Positions 1 to 22,482 of a stretch of 27,548 nucleotides of DNA are shown here, piece after piece. Both the position numbers and the translations under genes were made by a program. Source of the stretch: a bacterium. GTDB lineage: Bacteria; Patescibacteriota; Microgenomatia; Daviesbacterales; UBA10151. The notes beneath the pieces were generated by a model that was not told where the DNA came from, made no database searches, and saw only the letters and a list, made by a program, of their open reading frames with translations. How positions within the stretch are numbered: position 1 is the stretch's first letter; each line of letters begins with the position of its first letter. The stretch is taken from assembly GCA_021786105.1 (NCBI GenBank), contig JAJYNW010000019.1, positions 1-27,548 of the forward strand, in the 5' to 3' direction.

Positions 1-857
1 GGATTACCGGAGGCAAATATATTGGCAATATCATTTTTTTGGTAATCCACAAAATACCAAACCGGATATAAATTAAGCGGCCACGACCACCAGGGAGAAG
101 AGTAGGCGTGAGTAGCTTTAAGATTAGTGTGGTACCACCACATTTGTTGTTGGAGTTGAGTAAACTGATCGAAACTATGGCCTAACAAAAAGAAGGGCAA
201 GTAGCAAATTAAATAGACAATCGGAGGAATAATCAGATACAGCAAAATTTGACGGTACTGATAATTTTTGATCAGCAGGGGTATAAAAATCAGGTAGGAA
301 TAAACTGCAGCCCATTTGCTGGATAGAGCTAATCCCAAAAGGATTGCCGAGAGGAAGTATTTCCGATCCAGCAAAATAAGCAATGCCGCCAGGGAAAACG
401 TAACATAGTAAATGTCATTCATACCAGTGCGGGATTGGACAAAATTCAGCCCATCCAGAGAAAAAACAAATGCGGCTATTAATGATGCTGTTTGATTGTT
501 AAGTAGTTTAAGACCGAGTAAATACACTAAATAGACGGATAGGATTCCCAATAACGCTCCTGGTAATCGATATGCCCAAGCATCTTCGGTTCGAAATATA
601 GCCATAGATATAGCCATAATTTCTTTTGCCAATGGTGGGTGAGTCCATTCGTAAGCCACCCCCGGCGGCGGGGTATTCCACCATTCCCATGCTTCTTTGT
701 GACCGGCTAAAAATTCTTTGGCAGTAAAAGCGTGATAAACTTCATCAAAAACATACTTGTTAGGATAGTCTAATCTGTATAGCCTTAGAAAGGCTGTAAA
801 TAATAAAATCCCAATCAGGATATGTTTTGAATTAAGCTTTTTTAAGAGCAATATCAT
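1..857 (-). CDS. Dolichyl-phosphate-mannose--protein mannosyltransferase-like glycosyltransferase (GT39/PMT, GT-C); 3' end runs off the window
   Basis: Missing from the ORF track because it is truncated. Translation by hand from ATG at 857: MILLLKKLNSKHILIGILLFTAFLRLYRLDYPNKYVFDEVYHAFTAKEF...YEWTHPPLAKEIMA. It has the PMT hallmarks FDE and HPPL, and the frame at the left edge matches (…IFASGNP). Confidence 0.85.
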   Translation of the reverse strand, partial: MILLLKKLNSKHILIGILLFTAFLRLYRLDYPNKYVFDEVYHAFTAKEFLAGHKEAWEWWNTPPPGVAYEWTHPPLAKEIMAISMAIFRTEDAWAYRLPGALLGILSVYLVYLLGLKLLNNQTASLIAAFVFSLDGLNFVQSRTGMNDIYYVTFSLAALLILLDRKYFLSAILLGLALSSKWAAVYSYLIFIPLLIKNYQYRQILLYLIIPPIVYLICYLPFFLLGHSFDQFTQLQQQMWWYHTNLKATHAYSSPWWSWPLNLYPVWYFVDYQKNDIANIFASGN

Positions 858-2055
858 ATTTGATGAGAATAACACTAATTAAAATAAAAATGGCGGTAGA
901 AATCAATGATAAGTTTTTACCATTAGTGTCCAAAAAACTATAGAGGAAAGGGTTATAAAGTACTTTTGGGAGTTTGAGAAAAATCTCATTGTAGTAAACA
1001 TACACGTAATACAAATCAAGGAAATGTAATAAGCTTAATGCTCCGGTGAGTGTCAATAGTAACCTGGAACGAAAAGTGACGGTTGATAAAATGAGGAATA
1101 TAAGGGCAGGATAAAGGTATCTCTCGTGTGCGCGGGTTGGCAGAAAGAAGAACCCCATGGCAGCAAGAGCCCCTAAGGTATAAATAGATAATTTATTTCT
1201 GAAGTAAAAGTATACTATTGTAACCCAGTAGCTTAAAAATAAGATGTATCCCAAATTTTGGTAAGATATCCCTTGCCAAAGTTTGTTATCAGGCAGCCAG
1301 AACCCCACTGCTCCCCACAAGTTATAAGCAAATAGGGAAGTATAAGGATACTCTCCGGCGGTATTGGTAATATGATGGGCGAGATTTACTAATGTTTGAT
1401 TGGGGAAAAAGGGCAGTGCTAAAATAAAAATTATCAGTAAACCCGGGACGAGCAACTTAAATAAGTTGAGTAATTTGAACTGGTTGATTAGAAAAATAGC
1501 CAAAACAGGTATTAAGGCTAATGCTTGAGGTTTGATTAGTAAAGATAGTCCATAAAAAATTGAGCCAAAGATTAAATTATTTTTTTTCAAACTAATTACC
1601 GTTATCAGTAAAAATAAAGTTAGAATGCTATCAACTTGTCCCCAGACAGCGCTGTTAAAAATGATTGCCGGGTTAAATAGGATAAAAAGAAACGCCAAAA
1701 AAGCCAGTTTCTCTGGAACAACTTTTTTAATTTGATAGAATGCCAAAAGAGCAATTACCAGATCAGAAATAATTGCCGGTATTTTGAGCAAAAGATAAAA
1801 ATTCCTATCAGGCATTTGCAGGAAATTTTTTAAAAAACCTAATACACTTAGAATATATAAATAACCCGGTGTGTAATCTGTAAAGAAATCCTTGCTGTAA
1901 AAAGTGACAAAATTAAAATGACTAAGTCGAATAGCCCAGGCAAACCAGTCGTTAACGTCGATCTGGAATCCAGGCAGCATCGAGAGGCAGAGTCTCAGTG
2001 CTAGTCCTAATAATAATGAAGCGACTAGTGCTTTGTCCTGAAAGAAATACTTCAC
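832..2055 (-). CDS. Polytopic membrane glycosyltransferase (GT-C; GT87/PIG-M/Gpi18-like mannosyltransferase)
   Basis: DYTPGYLY, KIPAIISD, FNPAIIFNSAVWGQVDS, KPQ and HERYLYP motifs with many TM helices. Start moved from 2163 to GTG 2055, which removes the overlap with the divergent gene and has TACAAT 7 nt upstream. Confidence 0.75.
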   Translation of the reverse strand: MKYFFQDKALVASLLLGLALRLCLSMLPGFQIDVNDWFAWAIRLSHFNFVTFYSKDFFTDYTPGYLYILSVLGFLKNFLQMPDRNFYLLLKIPAIISDLVIALLAFYQIKKVVPEKLAFLAFLFILFNPAIIFNSAVWGQVDSILTLFLLITVISLKKNNLIFGSIFYGLSLLIKPQALALIPVLAIFLINQFKLLNLFKLLVPGLLIIFILALPFFPNQTLVNLAHHITNTAGEYPYTSLFAYNLWGAVGFWLPDNKLWQGISYQNLGYILFLSYWVTIVYFYFRNKLSIYTLGALAAMGFFFLPTRAHERYLYPALIFLILSTVTFRSRLLLTLTGALSLLHFLDLYYVYVYYNEIFLKLPKVLYNPFLYSFLDTNGKNLSLISTAIFILISVILIKYDIALKKA

Positions 2056-2092
2056 TATTAATATTGTAAGCTTTTTAATAGAATTAGGGGAT

Positions 2093-4039
2093 ATGGGAGT
2101 TAATTTACTACTTTTAATTTTAGGTTTTATTTTTACATTCTTTATCCCGGGTTTTCTAATCATAGAAACTTTCTTTTCAGAGATGCCAATTATACAAAAA
2201 TTACCACTACAATTACTTACCAGTGTAATGGTTTCTACCTATGCGGTTTATGTTGTCAGCTTGGGGTTGGGCTTTTCCCGAATTTCTATATTACTGACCA
2301 TCTTAATATTTTTAGTCTGGTTAGTTATCTTTTTATCCGGCAAAAAATTTAAATTTAACCGAAACTTTTTACGGGAGCATTCAACTGCTTTATTTATATC
2401 TCTACTAATTTTTTTCTTATTTTTAGCTGCTCTTTACCCGGCTATTTTCTCTCGTTATCAGAACTATTTTGTAATGTCAGCTGTGAATTGGCAGGATACG
2501 GCGATGCATCAGTCAATTATTCAAACCATTTCTCAGGGAAACTTTCCGCCCCAAGCTCCTTATTTTAGCGGGCAGCCGCTTAATTATTATTACTTTATTG
2601 ATTTTCATTCAGCTATTTTGCAGACTCTTTATTCAGACTTCTTTCCTAGGATTTTAGTTTATGATAATCCGTTTTTTGTCCTAATTTTTTTTCTGTCAAT
2701 ATATGCTTTAAGTTTAACTTTCTTTAGGAATAAAATTGCGGGAATTATATCGGGGCTATTAACTGTTTTTTGCGGTAACTTGTTATATGTTAGATTTTTT
2801 CAGGATATTAGTAAGAGTTTAGACGGGTCAAGCAATATTTTGTTAACCATCAGGAGTATAGTTGCCAGCCATAGCTACACTTTGGATTATGGCAAGCTTA
2901 TTCAGATGGTGCCAATGGCTGATTATTTTTTACAAAATCGGCCGATGATGCTCGGGCTTCCGGCTGTCGGATCGGTAATTTTTGTGTTGGTAAATGGCTT
3001 TGAAAAAAATAGTAAAAAATATTTTATACTGGCTGGGTTATTGACCGGGATGCTGGTTAAGTTCCAGTTGTTTGCTTTTGGGGTGAGTATTTTAATTTTT
3101 GTTTTAAGCTGGATGGTTTTTGCCGGTAAAAATTTTAGCAAGAAATTATACCAATTAGCCTATTTTTTGGGGCCGCTAATTATTTTTGTGATGTTTACAT
3201 CACTACTTTCCGGTAGTAATAATTACGTAATTTCTACTCTTCTTACTAACTTTCGTTTTGGCCCTTGGGATGAGACTCAAAACCTTTCTTGGTATTTATT
3301 TTTCCCTTTTGCCAATTTTGGAATATTGTTTTCATTGTTTTTGATATTTATTGTTTTGGTAATCCTTAAAAAGATTAATCTGATAAAAAAGGTTACCCTT
3401 TTATTAATTATAGGAATTACTCTTTATATTATCCCTCATGTAGTTTTTTTTACCATTTATGATGGCGATATGCTGAAATTTTTCTATTTTGCCTTACTGC
3501 CTTTTTCGTTAATTTCTGGTTTATTTTTACAAAGGATCCGGCAGAGTTTCCGTTTTGGGTTGATTATAGTTATTTTGCTGATAGCAGCTTCTTCGTTTAA
3601 TAGTTTTTTGACTTTGGGCGGAAGTTTCTTTAATAAAAATGAAGGATATTCCTTAGCAGATAACCAGGCTGGGATGTGGATTAGAAGCAATACTGTGCCA
3701 AACTCAGTCTTTATGACTATGCCGACAGTCCATTCGGCAGTTTCAGATATTGGCGGAAGATTAAGAGTGCTATCTTATACTGTCTGGCCTTATTCGCATG
3801 GTTTTAACAGGGGGGAGGATAATGTGTTTATCCGTCAAGCTAATATTGAAAGCATTTATCAAGACCCCGGAAATACAACTAATGCCAGGAAAGTATTTAG
3901 TCTGTATCGTATTAATTATCTCTATTATGGCAGCGAAGAACGGAGGAGGTATCCTTCTGCGAGGGCGGTTTTGAGTCAACAAACTTACCTTCAACTAGTC
4001 TATAATTTTTCCGGAATACAAATTTACAAAGTATTATGA
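2093..4039 (+). CDS. Large polytopic membrane protein, probable GT-C glycosyltransferase (DUF2298/YYY-like)
   Basis: 648 aa with many TM segments, N-terminal loop WQDTAMH...FPPQAPYFSGQPLNYYY, and soluble C-terminal domain WIRSNT...YLYYGSEER typical of GT-C enzymes. Confidence 0.65.
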   Translation: MGVNLLLLILGFIFTFFIPGFLIIETFFSEMPIIQKLPLQLLTSVMVSTYAVYVVSLGLGFSRISILLTILIFLVWLVIFLSGKKFKFNRNFLREHSTALFISLLIFFLFLAALYPAIFSRYQNYFVMSAVNWQDTAMHQSIIQTISQGNFPPQAPYFSGQPLNYYYFIDFHSAILQTLYSDFFPRILVYDNPFFVLIFFLSIYALSLTFFRNKIAGIISGLLTVFCGNLLYVRFFQDISKSLDGSSNILLTIRSIVASHSYTLDYGKLIQMVPMADYFLQNRPMMLGLPAVGSVIFVLVNGFEKNSKKYFILAGLLTGMLVKFQLFAFGVSILIFVLSWMVFAGKNFSKKLYQLAYFLGPLIIFVMFTSLLSGSNNYVISTLLTNFRFGPWDETQNLSWYLFFPFANFGILFSLFLIFIVLVILKKINLIKKVTLLLIIGITLYIIPHVVFFTIYDGDMLKFFYFALLPFSLISGLFLQRIRQSFRFGLIIVILLIAASSFNSFLTLGGSFFNKNEGYSLADNQAGMWIRSNTVPNSVFMTMPTVHSAVSDIGGRLRVLSYTVWPYSHGFNRGEDNVFIRQANIESIYQDPGNTTNARKVFSLYRINYLYYGSEERRRYPSARAVLSQQTYLQLVYNFSGIQIYKVL

Positions 4040-7259: not shown

Positions 7260-7545
7260 GCCTAGGAAGAAGGATAATCGGGTCGAATTTCGATCAGGAA
7301 AGTCCAGACAGCATAAAGCAGGGTGGGGTCGAGTAATCGATCCACGGGTAACCGCTAGTTAGAGCAACAGTGACGAACCGAGGTAAGGCTCGGGTGAAAC
7401 GAGGCAATCCTCCCCGCTGCAATCCTAGAACCAACAGAGCTGCTTGCTCGTTTGTTGAAATAAGGAGCATCAGATAAATGATTATCAAGTGGATAGATTC
7501 AGATAAAATCCACTGAACAGAATCTGGCTTATTCTTTTCCTAGGC
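7260..7545 (+). ncRNA. rnpB: RNase P RNA, compact form
   Basis: P1 GCCTAGGAAGAA/TTCTTTTCCTAGGC, P2 GATAATC/GATTATC, AGGAAAGTCC, GCAACAG, GGGTGAAACG and AACAGAATCTGGCTTA conserved regions; P4 is co-varied (CCAGA/TCTGG). Confidence 0.95.
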
Positions 7546-7546
7546 A

Positions 7547-7600
7547 AATCTGGCTTTAGAGCGATTAGCTCGCAAGCTTCGCTTACTAGCTTCCTAGGCA
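7547..7600 (+). repeat. Interrupted direct duplication of the rnpB 3' end with a hairpin in the middle
   Basis: AATCTGGCTT at 7521-7530 and 7547-7556; TTCCTAGGCA at 7537-7546 and 7591-7600; 34 nt containing AGCGA...TCGCT between the second pair. Confidence 0.75.
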
Positions 7601-17286: not shown

Positions 17287-17334
17287 AAACTTAATTCTAC
17301 ACCTTAGTTTAGTATGGTACAATTTGCTCTACTC

Positions 17335-18912
17335 ATGAAGTGGAAAATAGCTCCCAAAAAATCCAATGATTTAGTTGAACAGTTGCTGATTAACCGTGAG
17401 ATAAAAACTCCGAAAAAAAAAGAACAATTTTTTCATCCTAAAATTTCTGATTTTGAAAAAGATTTGGAAATCCCAGGAATAAGAAAGGCAACTGACAGGA
17501 TTTTGTTGGCGATTAAAAAAGAAGAGCTAATAATTGTTTACGGGGATTATGATGTTGACGGAATTTGCGCTTCGGCAATTTTATATAAAGGATTAACTTC
17601 GCTTGGGGCAAAAGTTTTACCTTATATTCCCCATCGGGAAAAAGAGGGTTATGGATTATCAAGGTTGGGTTTAGAGTCGGCTAAGGATTCCGGCGCAACA
17701 GCGGTGGTTACGGTTGACAATGGGATTGTAGCGGTAGAACAAGCAAAATATGCCAAAGAATTAGGTTTGGATTTAATTATTACTGATCACCATGTTCTGG
17801 GTGAGCAAAAACCGGAAGCGTACGCCATAGTTCATTCGGTTAAGATGTGCGGAGCAGCAGTGGCCTGGTGTTTAATTAAGGATCTAATTAAAAAAGAATT
17901 AGCCCAAGAACTTTTGCAATTTGTAGCAATTGCGACTGTGTGTGATCTTTTGCCGCTTTTGGATTTAAATAGGGCATTTGTTTTTGAGGGGTTGAGAATT
18001 CTAAACAAAACCGGAAATCCGGGTTTGCTGGCATTGATTAATGAATCGGGTATTAGTGCGGGAAATCTTAGGTCTTTTGAAATTGGGTTTTTGATTGGCC
18101 CGCGGTTAAATGCTATGGGCAGATTAGAACACGCCATAGATTCTTTGAGATTGCTTTGTACTAAGGATATTATTAAAGCAAAAAGATTAGCAAAACTCTT
18201 GTGTGATACTAACGCCAGCCGTCAGCAAATGACCATAGCTGCATTGGAACAGGCTAGATTGTTAATTAATCAGGAAAAAAAGATCCATGTTTTAGCCAGC
18301 AAAGAGTGGTCACCGGGAATTATTGGATTGGTAGCCGGGCGGGTCTGCGAAGAAACTTTTCGTCCAGCCATTGCCATCTCAATTGGAGAGGAAATTTCCA
18401 AAGGTTCGGCGCGATCAATAGACGGAATCAATATTGTGGAATTAATTCGGGAGCATGCGGATATTTTAGTTGATGTAGGCGGGCATCCGGGGGCGGCCGG
18501 ATTTTCTATTGCCAGCGAGAATGTCGAAATTTTTAAAAAAAGATTGGAAAGCCATCCATTAGTCTTGCCGGAAAAGGAAAAAATTTTGGAAATTGAGGCC
18601 GAGGTGGAAAGTGAAAAACTGACTAAGAGTTTAGTGACAGACTTACAAAAATTTGAGCCATTCGGCATGGATAATAGAAAACCAATTTTTGCTACCAAGA
18701 ATATGACAATTTCCGATATGAGGACAGTGGGGAATGGCAAACACTTAAAGTTTAAAGCAGATGATGTTGATGCCATTGCCTTTGGTATGGGCGAACAAGT
18801 CAGCCAATTAAAATCTGGCCAAATCATCGATTTGGCCTACAACTTAGAACTCGATACCTATAACGGCAACAATAAACTGCAATTAAAGGTTAAAGATATC
18901 AAGTTGTCTTAG
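17335..18912 (+). CDS. recJ: Single-stranded-DNA-specific exonuclease RecJ
   Basis: YGDYDVDG, EGYG, TVDNG, TDHH, PRLNAMGR, GSARS, GGHPGAAG and EPFG motifs; start ATG 17335 preferred. Confidence 0.96.
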   Translation: MKWKIAPKKSNDLVEQLLINREIKTPKKKEQFFHPKISDFEKDLEIPGIRKATDRILLAIKKEELIIVYGDYDVDGICASAILYKGLTSLGAKVLPYIPHREKEGYGLSRLGLESAKDSGATAVVTVDNGIVAVEQAKYAKELGLDLIITDHHVLGEQKPEAYAIVHSVKMCGAAVAWCLIKDLIKKELAQELLQFVAIATVCDLLPLLDLNRAFVFEGLRILNKTGNPGLLALINESGISAGNLRSFEIGFLIGPRLNAMGRLEHAIDSLRLLCTKDIIKAKRLAKLLCDTNASRQQMTIAALEQARLLINQEKKIHVLASKEWSPGIIGLVAGRVCEETFRPAIAISIGEEISKGSARSIDGINIVELIREHADILVDVGGHPGAAGFSIASENVEIFKKRLESHPLVLPEKEKILEIEAEVESEKLTKSLVTDLQKFEPFGMDNRKPIFATKNMTISDMRTVGNGKHLKFKADDVDAIAFGMGEQVSQLKSGQIIDLAYNLELDTYNGNNKLQLKVKDIKLS

Positions 18913-19165
18913 GACTTTCTTGGGGCCAACCATCTTCAGCTACAATTCCACGATAATTTTTGGGGGCGCATGGATGAAGATCTACTAGCTCACCGTTTGC
19001 TCTTTTGCCTACCGCTAAAGAATCCATTAAAAATTTAGGATTCATATTTGTAATACCATGTTTTCTCATATCTTTAAGACTTCTGATTTCAACATCTCCT
19101 TTTCCGTATGATGGTCTTATGGTAAATCCATTTCGAATCTCCGCGCCTTCTATTGTATTTGTCAT
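18899..19165 (-). CDS. Small hypothetical protein (88 aa), island left arm gene 3
   Basis: Strong SD AAGGAGGTG; aligns without gaps to the 19189-19425 product. Confidence 0.8.
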   Translation of the reverse strand: MTNTIEGAEIRNGFTIRPSYGKGDVEIRSLKDMRKHGITNMNPKFLMDSLAVGKRANGELVDLHPCAPKNYRGIVAEDGWPQESPKTT

Positions 19166-19188: not shown

Positions 19189-19425
19189 TTAAATTGAGTT
19201 TTTTTCTTCTTCAATAAATCCCTGTCCAAACCATTCTCCTGTTAACTTGTTGAATCCGATAATAGGTAAGGTTTTACCTTTTGCGTTACGGTATTGCCCG
19301 TTTTCGTTATAGGCACCTTCTAATGTAACGGGAACGCTAACAGGGATTCGTTTTTTACACTTTCCCCATTCAGGAACTATATTTTCATCAATAAATAACT
19401 CAGGTTTTGTTTCAGGTTTGGCCAT
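19189..19425 (-). CDS. Small hypothetical protein (78 aa), island left arm gene 2
   Basis: SD AAGGGGAG precedes ATG 19425, directly after the stop of the upstream gene; preferred to 19449. Confidence 0.78.
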   Translation of the reverse strand: MAKPETKPELFIDENIVPEWGKCKKRIPVSVPVTLEGAYNENGQYRNAKGKTLPIIGFNKLTGEWFGQGFIEEEKNSI

Positions 19426-19426
19426 C

Positions 19427-19789
19427 TTATCTCCCCTTATATCTTTCAATCACTATATTTGCAGCGCGTTGATCAATTTGAAGTGTTTTGAGTTGATGTG
19501 TAATTTCTTTACATTGGGTATCTGAAGCGCCTCTTATTTCTTCGTTTAATCTCCGAATGTCCTTAGTTCTTCTTCTTCGTTCTGCTAGGATTCCTTGAAG
19601 TTCTCTATAACCTAAACGGCAGACATCTGGAAATTTTCGGACTACAAGTTCTTGCGCCAAATGTTCGATTGTTTTTGGTCTACGTGGAACAGAAAAATAT
19701 TCTGTTTGAGTTGACGATCCATTTCCGTATATAGCTTGTTCGGCTGTAGGGTCAAACCAATAGACTCTTTCTCTGTAATTTCTGCTCAT
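19427..19789 (-). CDS. Hypothetical protein (120 aa) with basic coiled-coil C-terminus, island left arm gene 1
   Basis: ATG follows GGGAGG-T7, so its SD is the right arm of the attenuator terminator. Confidence 0.75.
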   Translation of the reverse strand: MSRNYRERVYWFDPTAEQAIYGNGSSTQTEYFSVPRRPKTIEHLAQELVVRKFPDVCRLGYRELQGILAERRRRTKDIRRLNEEIRGASDTQCKEITHQLKTLQIDQRAANIVIERYKGR

Positions 19790-19815
19790 AAAAAAACCTC
19801 CCGTTTTGGGAGGCT
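19790..19815 (-). terminator. Intrinsic terminator of the branched-chain attenuator
   Basis: AGCCTCCC-AAAAC-GGGAGG followed by T7, immediately before ATG 19789. Confidence 0.85.
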
Positions 19816-19842
19816 GAAATTCCTTTCTTTTTTAGATAAAAT

Positions 19843-19935
19843 TTATCTAAAAAGACCTCCCAGGCAAGCTCCTCTTAGGAGCACGGTAAGGAGGGTAACT
19901 AAAACTAATAAACTTTCAATCAAAATTAAATTCAT
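19843..19935 (-). CDS. Putative Leu/Ile/Val-rich attenuator leader peptide (30 aa)
   Basis: MNLILIESLLVLVTLLTVLLRGACLGGLFR*; 14 of residues 3-20 are L/I/V and 2 are T; GGGAAAG upstream; lies between promoter and terminator. Confidence 0.78.
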   Translation of the reverse strand: MNLILIESLLVLVTLLTVLLRGACLGGLFR

Positions 19936-19952
19936 ATTTAACTTTCCCTAAT

Positions 19953-19998
19953 ATTTTAATTGGTTATTGACGTCCTTGTCAAGCTTTGATACTATAAT
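19953..19998. promoter_or_regulatory. Overlapping divergent sigma70 promoters
   Basis: Plus strand: TTGACG (19967-72), N17, TACTAT (19990-95), with overlapping TATAAT at 19993-98. Minus strand: TTGACA (19982-77), N18, TAAAAT (19958-53). Confidence 0.75.
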
Positions 19999-20004
19999 TT
20001 CTCA

Positions 20005-20088
20005 ATGAAAAGTCATCAACCAACTTTTTCTTTTTACTTTACATATTTTTGGTTTACTTCCCGAAAGGGGGGTTGGTTGATGTCTTAA
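20005..20088 (+). CDS. Putative Phe/Tyr/Trp-rich attenuator leader peptide (27 aa)
   Basis: MKSHQPTFSFYFTYFWFTSRKGGWLMS*; 8 of residues 8-17 are aromatic; ATG lies 6 nt after TATAAT, so it is probably leaderless. Confidence 0.8.
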   Translation: MKSHQPTFSFYFTYFWFTSRKGGWLMS

Positions 20089-20120
20089 AGACAAAAAAGT
20101 CTTGAAGATAGAAACTTTAA

Positions 20121-20146
20121 ACCTCCCGAAAGGGGGGTATTTTTTT
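20121..20146 (+). terminator. Intrinsic terminator of the aromatic attenuator
   Basis: ACCTCCC-GAAA-GGGGGGT then A and T7, 9 nt before ATG 20156. Confidence 0.85.
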
Positions 20147-20155
20147 GGAAAAATT

Positions 20156-20395
20156 ATGGCAGTAGAAACACTTGATAGACAGCAAGCGCAAATAGTTATA
20201 AAAGAACCAGTGAAGACTTTCGCTAAAGGCATGCAATATCTTGATGCAATTGCGGAATCGATTCGGCAAGGTAAAGAACCAGTAGTTATTGATGATACCC
20301 ATTATAGATCGGAGAATCCTTCTGCATCCCCACAAGTTATGACTAGAAGAGAACGAAGATTTTGGAGGAATTATTGCAAAGGGAGAATTCGATGA
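20156..20395 (+). CDS. Small hypothetical protein (79 aa) with Arg-rich C-terminus, island right arm gene 1
   Basis: MAVETLDRQQ...TRRERRFWRNYCKGRIR; ATG 20156 lies downstream of the terminator and is preferred to TTG 20102. Confidence 0.7.
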   Translation: MAVETLDRQQAQIVIKEPVKTFAKGMQYLDAIAESIRQGKEPVVIDDTHYRSENPSASPQVMTRRERRFWRNYCKGRIR

Positions 20396-20425: not shown

Positions 20426-20683
20426 ATGGTAGTAGAAGCAATCGATAGAGCTGGCGCGCTTGAGCAGCTATTAGGTAAAGGCGATCGTTGTGTTGACGTG
20501 TTGAAAAATGCTGATCAAAGATGTCAAGAAACATCAGTCGATCCCTGTGGAATTTGTAGAGTCCAGGATATGATTTCTCTTACACGGAATATAGAAACTG
20601 CTAAGAATATAGCAGAAATTTGTTGTCCAGCAGGGAAAATGGCTGCAAATTTAGAGCGTAAGTTAGCAGCAATGCCTAAGTAG
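20426..20683 (+). CDS. Small Cys-rich protein (85 aa), island right arm gene 2
   Basis: SD AAAGGAGGTG; RC-x7-CGIC...EICC. Confidence 0.82.
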   Translation: MVVEAIDRAGALEQLLGKGDRCVDVLKNADQRCQETSVDPCGICRVQDMISLTRNIETAKNIAEICCPAGKMAANLERKLAAMPK

Positions 20684-20734: not shown

Positions 20735-20968
20735 ATGGTAGAAAAAATCGATCCAAGCGATCCGGAGGCAAGGCGGATTAGCTGGCAAGATAGATTACCG
20801 GAGGAGGTAGTTGTTGAGCCGGAAATAGATCACTCATCAGTTAATGTTATTAATCAAAGAATAAAGAGCAGATGTTGGGAGGAGTTGACTGGTAGTTGTG
20901 GTTTATGTATAGATCCTAGTGCAGGAGAGGTTTCCCAGAAATTAGTCGAAGCTTGTCGGATCCTTTGA
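20735..20968 (+). CDS. Small Cys-rich protein (77 aa), island right arm gene 3; possibly frameshift-truncated
   Basis: SD AAGGAGGTG; RC-x7-CGLC...EAC. Confidence 0.78.
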   Translation: MVEKIDPSDPEARRISWQDRLPEEVVVEPEIDHSSVNVINQRIKSRCWEELTGSCGLCIDPSAGEVSQKLVEACRIL

Positions 20969-21165: not shown

Positions 21166-22482
21166 ATGAGGGTTCTTATTTTGGATTGTAACGAAAAAAT
21201 TGGTAAAGAAGTTAAAATTTGCGGATGGGTACATGTCCGTCGTGATCACGGAAAAATTATTTTTTTGGATATTACTGACAGGTCTGGCATTATTCAAGTA
21301 GTGGCAGAGGGTAGTAAAGTTCCTGATCTCCGTCCTCAAGATATGGTTTGTGTTACCGGTTCGGTAAAAAAAAGACCCGAGCATTTGTTTAATAAAAATA
21401 TCCCCACTGGTGAAATAGAAATCTCTGCGGAAAATATTGAAGTTTTATCAAAAGCCGCAGAGCTCCCTTTTGATATGGGCGGGAAAGAGTTGGATTTACA
21501 ACTTCCGACTTTACTGGACTATCGCTCGCTGACGTTGCGTCATCCCAAAGTCAAAGCTATTTTTAAAATTCAGGCCTGTTTGCTGGATGGGTTTCGGAAA
21601 GTAGCTAAAGATTTAGGGTGTACAGAGATTGTGGTGCCGACAATTGTGGCCGGGGCAACCGAAGGCGGAGCTGAGGTTTTTAAGGTAGATTATTTTGGCC
21701 ATAAAGCTTATATGTCCCAAAGTCCTCAACTTTATAAACAAATGCTGGTACCGGTTTTTGAAAGGGTGTTTACAGTGGCCAAAGCTTACCGGGCCGAGCC
21801 ATCGGTGACAACCAGGCATTTAACAGAAAGCACACAGATGGATATTGAGTTTGGTTTCATGGAATTTGAAGATTTATTGGATGTTTTGGAGGAGGTGGCG
21901 GTGAAAATGCTCAAAATTGCTGAGGAAGAATGTAAAGATGTGTTATCTGAATTTGGTATTGAAAAGGTAGCTTTCGGTAAAATTCCCCGCCTGACTTTAC
22001 GGGAATCTCAGGAAATAATTTTAAAAGAATTTGGTCGAGATAACAGAAAAGAAAAAGATTTAACTCCGCAGGATGAGGTGGATCTTTGTAAGTGGTCTAA
22101 AGAAAAATATGATAGTGATTTTGTTACGATTACTCATTTTCCTACTGTTGCTAAACCTTTTTATACTATGCCGGATCCGAAAAATCCGGAATATTCTTTA
22201 AGCTATGATTTGCTGTTTAGGGGGGTTGAGGTGATGAGCGGTTCGCAAAGAATTAATGATTATCAGCAGTTGATTGACAGTATTAAGAGCCGGGGGATGG
22301 ATCCTGATAATTTCCAGATGTATCTACAGGCTTTTAAATATGGTATGCCGCCGGAAGGAGGGTTTTCGTTTGGCTTGGAAAGAATCACTATGCATGTGTT
22401 AAACCTTGCCAATGTTAGGGAAGCGAGTTTGTTCCCAAGGGATATGGAGAGAGTGGATGTAAGATTAAGTAAATTGACCTAA
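21166..22482 (+). CDS. aspS: Archaeal-type (short, probably non-discriminating) aspartate--tRNA(Asp/Asn) ligase
   Basis: 438 aa, no GAD insert; OB-fold GWVHVRRDHG, TEGGAEVF, QSPQLYKQ, YRAE...RH and YGMPPEGGFSFGLER...LFPRD; SD AAGGAGG. Confidence 0.93.
   Translation: MRVLILDCNEKIGKEVKICGWVHVRRDHGKIIFLDITDRSGIIQVVAEGSKVPDLRPQDMVCVTGSVKKRPEHLFNKNIPTGEIEISAENIEVLSKAAELPFDMGGKELDLQLPTLLDYRSLTLRHPKVKAIFKIQACLLDGFRKVAKDLGCTEIVVPTIVAGATEGGAEVFKVDYFGHKAYMSQSPQLYKQMLVPVFERVFTVAKAYRAEPSVTTRHLTESTQMDIEFGFMEFEDLLDVLEEVAVKMLKIAEEECKDVLSEFGIEKVAFGKIPRLTLRESQEIILKEFGRDNRKEKDLTPQDEVDLCKWSKEKYDSDFVTITHFPTVAKPFYTMPDPKNPEYSLSYDLLFRGVEVMSGSQRINDYQQLIDSIKSRGMDPDNFQMYLQAFKYGMPPEGGFSFGLERITMHVLNLANVREASLFPRDMERVDVRLSKLT

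Follow-up and report, generated by a model that had tools for sequence, protein, structure and literature searches.

The leu, ilvGMEDA, ilvBN, thr, his, trp and pheA attenuators of enterobacteria combine a short open reading frame (ORF) carrying regulatory codons with mutually exclusive RNA pairings and a terminator. In translational attenuation of the ermC/cat type, antibiotic-bound ribosomes stall on a leader and open a hairpin that holds the Shine-Dalgarno (SD) sequence, which controls resistance genes, and in type I toxin-antitoxin systems small hydrophobic peptides are encoded on highly structured mRNA. Leader-peptide attenuation itself is textbook biology; gene regulation in the uncultured, reduced-genome organisms considered here is largely uncharted. 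We analysed a stretch of 27,548 nucleotides (the window, contig JAJYNW010000019.1 of assembly GCA_021786105.1) from a bacterium of the Daviesbacterales, Patescibacteriota, and describe an element on its minus strand that lies between a promoter-like site and the gene starting at position 19789. We consider it probable, at a chance of roughly 75%, that this element is a leucine-weighted, ribosome-mediated (leader-peptide) transcription attenuator whose terminator also hides the SD sequence of the next gene.

Two reports describe comparable arrangements. Seliverstov et al. (2005, PMC1262725) predicted classical attenuators in Actinobacteria by comparative genomics, with trpS and leuS among the genes behind them, and the mycobacterial whiB7 5' leader carries an alanine-enriched upstream ORF (uORF) whose composition sets the starvation signal that relieves termination (Poulton et al. 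2023 preprint, PMC10274678). A full-text literature search found no description of leader-peptide attenuation in bacteria of the candidate phyla radiation (Patescibacteria, Microgenomates, Daviesbacteria). For the present locus, the anatomy of the element, its conservation and covariation, the kept ORF with its codon bias and the genes associated with sister leaders are documented below, and from them we infer stalling, the actual switching, its leucine specificity and the roles of three orphan proteins.

On the minus strand (all positions are window coordinates unless another contig is named), a promoter-like site TTGACA-18 nt-TAAAAT at 19953..19982, called by a consensus match at 11 of 12 positions, is followed by a leader ORF of 30 codons plus stop, MNLILIESLLVLVTLLTVLLRGACLGGLFR, at 19843..19935. 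Its ATG at 19935 stands 17 nt past the -10 hexamer and the short 5' end contains GGAAAG. Promoter-like sites in the region number 6 against 6.5 in shuffles, and on the opposite strand, where a promoter for an antisense RNA was looked for, only a weak match (9/12) occurs, at 19814..19842 (+), inside the palindromic hairpin P2 described next. Within the ORF, segment 1 ACCCTCCT (RNA ACCCUCCU; 19889..19896) is read as Thr-Leu-Leu and has segment 2 as its partner, and an inner hairpin GCUCCU-AAG-AGGAGC (19868..19882) extends this 1:2 structure within the coding region. Segment 2 itself, TGGGAGGTC (RNA UGGGAGGUC; 19854..19862), is the switch strand, as it can pair with either segment 1 or segment 3. 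It is followed by P2, an A/U-rich hairpin of 11 bp predicted by folding, TTTTTAGATAA-ATT-TTATCTAAAAA (19829..19853), inside which the UAA stop codon of the leader is found (19843..19845). Segment 3, GCCTCCCA (RNA GCCUCCCA; 19807..19814), forms the 5' arm of a predicted intrinsic terminator (19790..19815, stem of 7-8 bp) that is composed of segment 3, a loop, segment 4 and a U7 run; a consensus scan places the same call at 19815..19795. Segment 4, GGGAGG (19797..19802), is at once the 3' arm of the terminator and an SD sequence 7 nt before the AUG at 19789, and the U7 run (T7 in the DNA, 19790..19796) directly precedes the ATG of the 120-amino-acid (aa) ORF that begins there.

An earlier sequence-only reading of this DNA had pointed to a 30-aa ORF with 9 Leu, 3 Val, 2 Ile and 2 Thr in codons 3-20, and direct reading of the sequence gives exactly this composition. 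The segments, the inner hairpin and the A/U hairpin that it listed are all found on the minus strand where it had placed them, and the GGGAGG-U7-AUG junction, by which the right arm of the terminator doubles as the SD of the gene at 19789, is likewise present. It had also likened the GACLGG tail of the peptide to that of IlvL; a simpler account is that these residues are what segment 2 encodes.

The mechanism proposed for this element would proceed as follows. Transcription would start a few bases before the leader AUG. As long as no ribosome is stalled, segment 1 would pair with segment 2 in a structure stiffened by the inner hairpin; alternatively, a ribosome at the stop codon (19845..19843) would cover segment 2. 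Either way segment 2 would be occupied, the 3:4 hairpin would form and, together with the U7 run, would bring transcription to an end at about 19790. If charged tRNA-Leu runs short, and probably also tRNA-Val or tRNA-Thr, a ribosome would stall at or around segment 1 and mask it, leaving segment 2 free to pair with segment 3, the A/U hairpin being enclosed between the two. Formation of the terminator would then be blocked and the polymerase could read through into three genes, named here p120, p86 and p88, while the GGGAGG of segment 4 would be left single-stranded as the SD sequence for the AUG at 19789. One switch would hence control transcription as well as the initiation of translation.

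Folding of the 171-nt leader gives -51.2 kcal/mol, compared to -35.9 +/- 3.4 for shuffled sequences (z = -4.5), and none of 200 shuffles was as good. The exact hairpin/T-run pattern is found at 3 sites only in the whole 1.04-Mb genome, for which reason the element was rejected as a general trait of the gene starts of this genome. A repeat or mobile element was also considered and rejected, the units being syntenic and present as one copy per class. Furthermore, none of the amino-acid leader families of Rfam 15 reaches its gathering threshold in the window: Phe_leader (RF01859) remains sub-threshold on the minus strand with 23.3 bits against a gathering score of 55, and the leu/phe leader RF01743 gives 16.7 bits against 70. 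The only Rfam family above threshold in the window is the bacterial class A RNase P RNA at 7262..7547 (+), with 108.5 bits for a gathering score of 100.

Ribosome occupancy was then imitated by masking, in which the RNA is hidden up to 15 nt past the A-site codon and the remainder is folded through segment 4. With the A site on any of codons 11, 12 and 14-18 (V, L, T, L, L, T, V), and at no other position, the 2:3 antiterminator has the lowest energy; the terminator wins with the A site on codons 1-10, on codon 13 and from codon 19 to the stop. This outcome would be the behaviour that classical attenuation requires, within what is a crude thermodynamic picture. The sequence-only reading had called for such constrained folding, and the antiterminator proves to be favoured only for stalls near segment 1.

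A covariance model was built from five relatives and used to search the genomes of the family. It scores the window leader at 102 bits (E about 3e-19) and recovers 56 copies in 52 family genomes (E up to 2e-7). The hairpin/U-run pattern is present in 82 of 96 family genomes, with no match for a reversed control pattern, and an 18-nt signature spanning segment 2 and P2 occurs in 52 of the 96, mostly once per genome; when one mismatch is allowed in this signature the reversed control gives 9 matches, and two of the signature matches retrieved sat inside a coding gene without a terminator. In a sample spread over the class, strong matches to the covariance model are confined to the family (5 of the 7 family genomes sampled), other families showing weak matches of 42-45 bits in 3 of 143 genomes, one of which corresponds to a similar leader rich in Leu, Ile, Val and Asn. 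Many of the close relatives (AspRS 59-87% identical) are filed as 'uncultured Gammaproteobacteria', others as Candidatus Daviesbacteria or Levybacteria, and the former look mis-assigned.

A TTGAC[AGT]-N16-19-TAnnnT motif is found upstream of 53 of the 56 homologous leaders. The leader ATG is located 3-13 nt past the -10 element in 42 of 51 leaders, most of which are thus probably near-leaderless. At the other end, an AUG follows the U-run within 0-2 nt in 42 of the 56 copies, opening 18 ORFs of at least 40 aa and 24 mini-ORFs, and the GGGAGG-U-run-AUG junction is by this count a trait of the family. The mini-ORFs (24/56 copies) have few codons and often contain the SD of the real gene; they might serve translational coupling.

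In the structural alignment of the 56 sequences, 95.7% of cells pair over the four helices, and both-sided changes are seen at 21 of 30 pairs (119 cells). No column shuffle out of 500 matched any of five measures, and when the partners were slid by 1-3 columns as a control, pairing dropped to 45-66%. Helix 1 (1:2) is 98.8% paired. The inner hairpin shows compensatory changes at all six of its pairs, and a hairpin forms at this position in every homologue folded singly. Helix 3 (P2) displays double changes at 9 of 10 pairs, and a synonymous AGA/AGG position within it covaries with its partner (AU in 30 sequences, GC in 18, GU in 6). Helix 4, the terminator, is 99.8% paired with double changes at 5 of 8 pairs. 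RNAalifold, run on the same alignment without the structure being supplied, recovered all four helices, compensatory changes being seen at 19 of 29 pairs. When given a plain MAFFT alignment of 16 leaders, it detected no helix but the outer 1:2 one and the terminator, and not a single compensatory pair; plain MAFFT alignments were set aside because the inner hairpins are misaligned in them, and the model-based alignment was used instead.

As for the alternative 2:3 helix, 93.5% of cells can pair and a C-G/U-A exchange is seen at the outer pair. Double changes affect 8 cells, a level reached by 0 of 500 shuffles. In the six sequences in which the base after GGGAGG is a C, the partner in segment 3 is a G in 6/6 and the partner in segment 1 in 5/6, a joint change that is as expected if segment 2 must pair with both. 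The mutually exclusive 1:2, 2:3 and 3:4 pairings that the sequence-only reading had drawn are thereby supported by folding, by helix covariation and by the 2:3 pairing capacity. Taking fold stability, pattern rarity and the conservation and covariation across 52 genomes, the leader element is not a product of chance.

The peptide-coding part was examined in the same homologues. In 56/56 copies an ATG ORF runs across segment 1 and has its stop 12-18 nt past the start of segment 2, and the other two frames are almost never open. One frame is shared by 53 of the 56 copies, with segment 1 read as Leu-Leu in 46 of these 53. Over the 14 core codons of the 53 homologues, Leu accounts for 42.7%, Val for 12.7%, Ile for 9.8%, Ala for 4.2%, and Phe and Met for 1.2% each, compared to 10.4% for Leu genome-wide, and a 10-residue window with 5-8 Leu is found in 47 of the 53. 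The element had been described as a branched-chain leader peptide: the leader part of this description holds, but the bias is mainly towards leucine and not evenly branched-chain. The homologues keep Leu, Val and Ile and not Phe, Ala or Met, the residues whose use in place of Leu, Ile and Val would, for the sequence-only reading, have refuted the switch. The genome has five tRNA-Leu genes, each in single copy.

The tail of the peptide is read in different frames, ending in ...GGLFR with the stop at +16 in 37 copies and in ...GRSF with the stop at +12 in 13 copies; it is therefore the position of the stop which is conserved and not the tail peptide. Likewise, the ratio of nonsynonymous to synonymous polymorphism (pN/pS) is 0.8 for codons 2-13 of 24 leaders of equal length, and the N-terminus, conserved as it looks, therefore gives no sign of strong selection on the protein.

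The same scaffold carries leaders rich in Leu, Ile, aromatic residues, Thr, Met or Cys, and several of these stand in relatives before genes of recognisable function, assigned with Pfam or NCBIfam support. Aromatic leaders are found before DAHP synthase and prephenate dehydratase and Ile leaders before citramalate synthase, RidA and a biosynthetic acetolactate synthase (TIGR00118, 695 bits). The gene behind a Lys/Thr leader is an amino-acid kinase (aspartate kinase); a Met leader precedes an S-adenosylmethionine (SAM) hydroxide adenosyltransferase-like protein, and Cys leaders a PIG-L deacetylase and a methyltransferase. Two Leu-class copies occur together in one genome, and the second (76.9 bits) lies directly before a 403-aa isopropylmalate-synthase-like gene, whose best family is NF002086 with 470 bits, below the full-length cut-off of 532; behind this gene come an Ile leader and then citramalate synthase. 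In a relative, a leader that contains four Tyr codons in a row (MGKLINKYYYYNNFSKGGGLA) stands before an ORF of 323 aa.

When 130 non-redundant leader/terminator units from the sampled loci were classed by a simple composition rule, 11 of the 30 aromatic leaders were found before DAHP synthase or prephenate dehydratase and 0 before branched-chain genes, and 11 of the 80 Leu/Ile leaders before LeuA, CimA, ALS or RidA and 0 before aromatic genes. Most of the remaining classed units precede genes without known function. The codon bias of the sister leaders tracks the downstream pathway, and the lineage therefore uses codon identity for specificity. The switch that the sequence-only reading had proposed thus finds support, as far as sequence analysis reaches, in the ORF kept in 56/56 copies, the covarying helices, the AUG junction in 42 of 56 and the cognate sister leaders.

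The genes placed under this putative control in the window form a small minus-strand cluster. The first, p120 (120 aa, an orphan; 19427..19789), starts 0 nt past the U-run, which leaves no space for a promoter, and can therefore be transcribed only by readthrough of the terminator. The second, p86 (78 aa from its ATG; 19189..19425), begins right behind the p120 stop, and the third, p88 (88 aa; 18899..19165), overlaps with its end the 3' end of the convergent recJ (17314..18912, plus strand) by 14 nt (18899..18912). A terminator-like hairpin for the minus-strand operon was called by consensus scan inside recJ, at 18837..18817 on the minus strand.

Homologues of these proteins are few. p120 occurs in 2 of 61 related genomes, and a search of 5.8 billion proteins returned itself and one relative; an additional scan of genome contigs added no homologue. 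Its relatives are a protein with 35% identity in genome G032 and a protein at locus L009 linked by BLASTP, and both of these diverged relatives also sit behind Leu-class leaders. In G032 the leader DNA shows 76% mean column identity as compared to 35% for the p120 protein, and a second promoter, an Ile-rich leader and a terminator stand directly before citramalate synthase. For p86, the protein search found only itself, and tblastn detected relatives with 35-37% identity at the same locus of two same-genus genomes. Because diverged homologues exist at the same locus, p120 and p86 are real genes, and neither has a promoter to itself. No family was found for p120, p86 or p88 in Pfam, NCBIfam, PHROG or PADLOC searches, two PADLOC matches (E about 0.002) being weak and not believed, and the ESM Atlas gave for p120 and p88 no usable feature match and only structural neighbours with TM values below 0.5.

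The position of the Leu-class unit is conserved, divergent from aspS and with downstream genes converging on recJ. Among 71 short loci, tblastn detects recJ at 33 and aspS at 15, and among 30 aspS-anchored loci a strong copy is found upstream of aspS on the opposite strand in 6. The leaders often occur in series, Leu being followed by Ile and then by the aromatic one. The genes behind the Leu unit are hypervariable even within the genus, as 51 first ORFs fall into 38 BLASTP clusters with 30 singletons. The 38 complete first ORFs of at most 150 aa have a median length of 82 aa and a median grand average of hydropathy (GRAVY) of -0.69, and none shows a membrane-like stretch. In some relatives the gene behind a Leu-class leader is a RelA/SpoT homologue, and GreA is found behind a variant leader whose tail is the same.

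Several observations weigh against attenuation by leucine as we propose it. The 92%-complete genome holds no HMGL-like (leuA/cimA-type), Iso_dh (leuB-type) or DAHP_synth_1 match, families that are present in 11-14 of 14 controls, and tblastn with the relatives' CimA, LeuA, ALS and prephenate dehydratase gave no match in it either. With no leu, ilv or aro pathway genes found, the textbook logic by which a leader senses the product of the pathway that it controls therefore fails in the window: the controlled genes are orphans and not, as in relatives, genes of the sensed amino acid's metabolism. The Leu codons of segment 1 are partly forced by pairing with GGGAGG, so that codon bias and RNA constraint are confounded, and the leader peptide is also plausible as a single transmembrane helix. 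On the structural side, the alignment was fitted to the covariance model and so favours the structure of that model, and the locus sample was gathered via sequence patterns and is hence biased. The 2:3 helix covaries thinly, with both-sided changes at 3 of 8 pairs, a number reached by 29 of 500 shuffles, because the core of the helix is nearly invariant, as segments 1-4 are altogether. Finally, masking applied to 98 leaders gave a consistent 3' limit and a noisy 5' limit of the sensing window.

In an alternative reading the same attenuator hardware would be a general sensor of slowed translation and not of leucine, responding to a lack of any amino acid, to compounds that target the ribosome or to stringent conditions, its Leu codons being imposed by the pairing with GGGAGG. 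Under such a reading a CCUCC-like segment 1 forces CUC/CUU codons, and CUC indeed makes up 20% of the leader Leu codons as compared to 4.7% genome-wide; the downstream genes are not leucine genes, they include the RelA/SpoT homologue and, behind the variant leader, GreA, and the first genes are hypervariable orphans (51 ORFs in 38 clusters). The whiB7 uORF is a published precedent for a stalling sensor before a stress gene (PMC10274678). However, the Leu enrichment extends beyond the two forced codons to 42.7% of the 14 core codons, sister leaders shift their codon bias in step with the downstream pathway, and one Leu-class copy does precede an isopropylmalate-synthase-like gene, which makes a general sensor unlikely although the most credible of the alternatives.

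Less probable still, a small hydrophobic membrane peptide, similar to type I toxins or of another kind, might be encoded here by an independent gene with its own terminator; the hairpins would then serve mRNA stability or translational control of the peptide, and the downstream genes would be expressed independently. The peptide is kept in 52 genomes and does combine a charged N-terminal part with a hydrophobic stretch of about 20 residues, its ORF is flanked by a promoter-like site and a strong terminator, and in some relatives only 190-500 nt separate that terminator from the convergent recJ. But p120, which like p86 is a real gene, abuts the U-run so closely that a promoter would not fit, homologues read the C-terminus in two frames, and a pN/pS of 0.8 over the 12 N-terminal codons does not indicate purifying selection. 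Phe, Ala and Met are moreover nearly absent from the hydrophobic core, and leaders that are not hydrophobic (Thr/Lys, Cys, Met) stand on the same scaffold before cognate enzymes. The two tail frames, the pN/pS value and the genes abutting the terminator thus disfavour the toxin alternative that the sequence-only reading had kept beside its switch. A structured 5' leader switched by a protein or a small ligand, in which the ORF would be incidental, might explain the strong helix covariation inside the 'coding' part and the conservation of the P2 sequence beyond pairing needs. Against it, the ORF is intact in 56/56 copies with the other frames almost never open, the start codon keeps close to the -10 element (3-13 nt in 42/51 leaders), the stop keeps a fixed distance from segment 2, no Rfam family reaches threshold, and no conserved unpaired pocket or junction is seen besides the helices; we regard it as the most improbable reading of all.

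The genome contains other units with a layout similar to that of the Leu-class leader. On the plus strand of the window, a unit at 19967..20146 is the mirror image of the Leu unit and is scored by the covariance model at 30.8 bits, while Rfam Phe_leader gives a sub-threshold 29.7 bits (gathering score 55). It comprises a promoter-like TTGACG-17-TACTAT found by consensus scan (19967..19995), a Phe/Tyr/Trp-rich leader ORF of 27 aa, MKSHQPTFSFYFTYFWFTSRKGGWLMS (20005..20088), a hairpin CUUCCC-GAAA-GGGGGG (20057..20072), a long-range stem between 20014..20024 and 20072..20082 with one compensatory change in relative L099, and a terminator made of a C-rich/G-rich hairpin with a U-run (20121..20146). 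Downstream of it on the same strand are three orphan small genes for which no family was found, q79 (20156..20395), q85 (20426..20683) and q77 (20735..20968), upstream of aspS (21166..22482). The closest relative (AspRS 87% identical) displays the same layout, and its orthologous aromatic leader precedes DAHP synthase. The divergent -35 hexamers of the two units stand back to back, 4 nt apart, at 19967..19982 (TTGACG TCCT TGTCAA), and do so in the closest relative as well.

A third unit is located on contig C5 (about 130..310 of that contig), with a promoter-like site, an Ile/Thr-rich leader MNTQRLATITAIIITSPAGGS and a terminator near-identical to that of the window. Downstream come a mini-ORF of 3 codons, a Cys-containing ORF of 99 aa (329..628) and ileS (687..3572; TIGR00392 at 671 bits for a cut-off of 621). 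On contig C2 (~8870), a short ORF MKNKFLQLNNYAYFSLPKGGAFLVVK, a G/C hairpin with a U-run and an ATG occur upstream of a family-less 78-aa ORF; this site is not scored by the model. Two further structured leaders, at ~28443 (+) of contig C26 and ~17081 (+) of contig C16, show a G/C hairpin and U-run directly followed by an ATG. No leader ORF is obvious in either, and both might be elements of the riboswitch type.

The lineage is apparently auxotrophic for leucine and aromatic amino acids. A tentative scenario, which we hold to be possible although not the likeliest, is that the attenuators outlived their pathways and would now serve as supply gauges for amino acids obtained from outside, with one RNA chassis re-coded for Leu, Ile, Phe/Tyr/Trp, Thr, Met and Cys and the resulting units aligned at the aspS-recJ locus. 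The Leu unit might then drive fast-turning-over small hydrophilic orphans, and in some relatives Rel or (behind the variant leader) GreA, as a starvation programme possibly aimed at a host or partner cell and coupled directly to the stalling of ribosomes. The occurrence of Leu-type and aromatic-type switches before orphan genes points to a starvation-induced function that has no name so far, and these small genes thereby gain a first functional context. Furthermore, the amino acids that these cells monitor can be predicted directly from the codon class of a leader, a scaffold re-coded for at least six amino-acid classes would be a natural example of a programmable attenuator, and the covariance model can annotate dozens of 'hypothetical' intergenic regions and flag the small proteins under their control.

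Compared to the ermC/cat leaders, the element has in common an SD sequence sequestered in a hairpin, GGGAGG 7 nt before the AUG, whose opening by a stalled leader ribosome is proposed here as well, but the hairpin is here also an intrinsic terminator with a U7 run, and the downstream genes have no resistance-family match in the family searches. Like the type I toxins, it has a highly structured mRNA that encodes a peptide of about 30 residues with a single hydrophobic helix; it differs by its two tail frames, its pN/pS of about 0.8 and the real genes that abut its terminator.

The closest likeness is in the layout of the enterobacterial attenuators: a promoter-proximal ORF with clustered codons, the 1:2, 2:3 and 3:4 pairings, a terminator before the first structural gene and a stop placed such that a terminating ribosome would cover segment 2. 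No Rfam model shows a relationship to them (Phe_leader being the best with 23.3 bits for a gathering score of 55). What differs here is that the 3' arm of the terminator is the SD sequence of the AUG behind it, that the stop codon sits in an additional conserved A/U hairpin and that most relatives probably have a near-leaderless version; also, the targets are orphans in a genome without a detectable leu or aro pathway.

The actinobacterial attenuators likewise lie outside the Proteobacteria and some of them precede aminoacyl-tRNA synthetases, as does the Ile/Thr-rich leader before ileS here; phylum and RNA are different, and a single scaffold with at least six codon classes, often arrayed in series, is what sets the present units apart from them. 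With the whiB7 uORF the element has in common that the controlled gene is not a biosynthetic enzyme, whereas the ORF is enriched in alanine there and in leucine here, and whiB7 is a known regulator whereas p120, p86 and p88 are without family. Hence, what appears to be new is the lineage in which the mechanism would operate, and also its use, namely one scaffold re-coded for several amino acids and kept here before orphan genes after the pathways appear to be gone.

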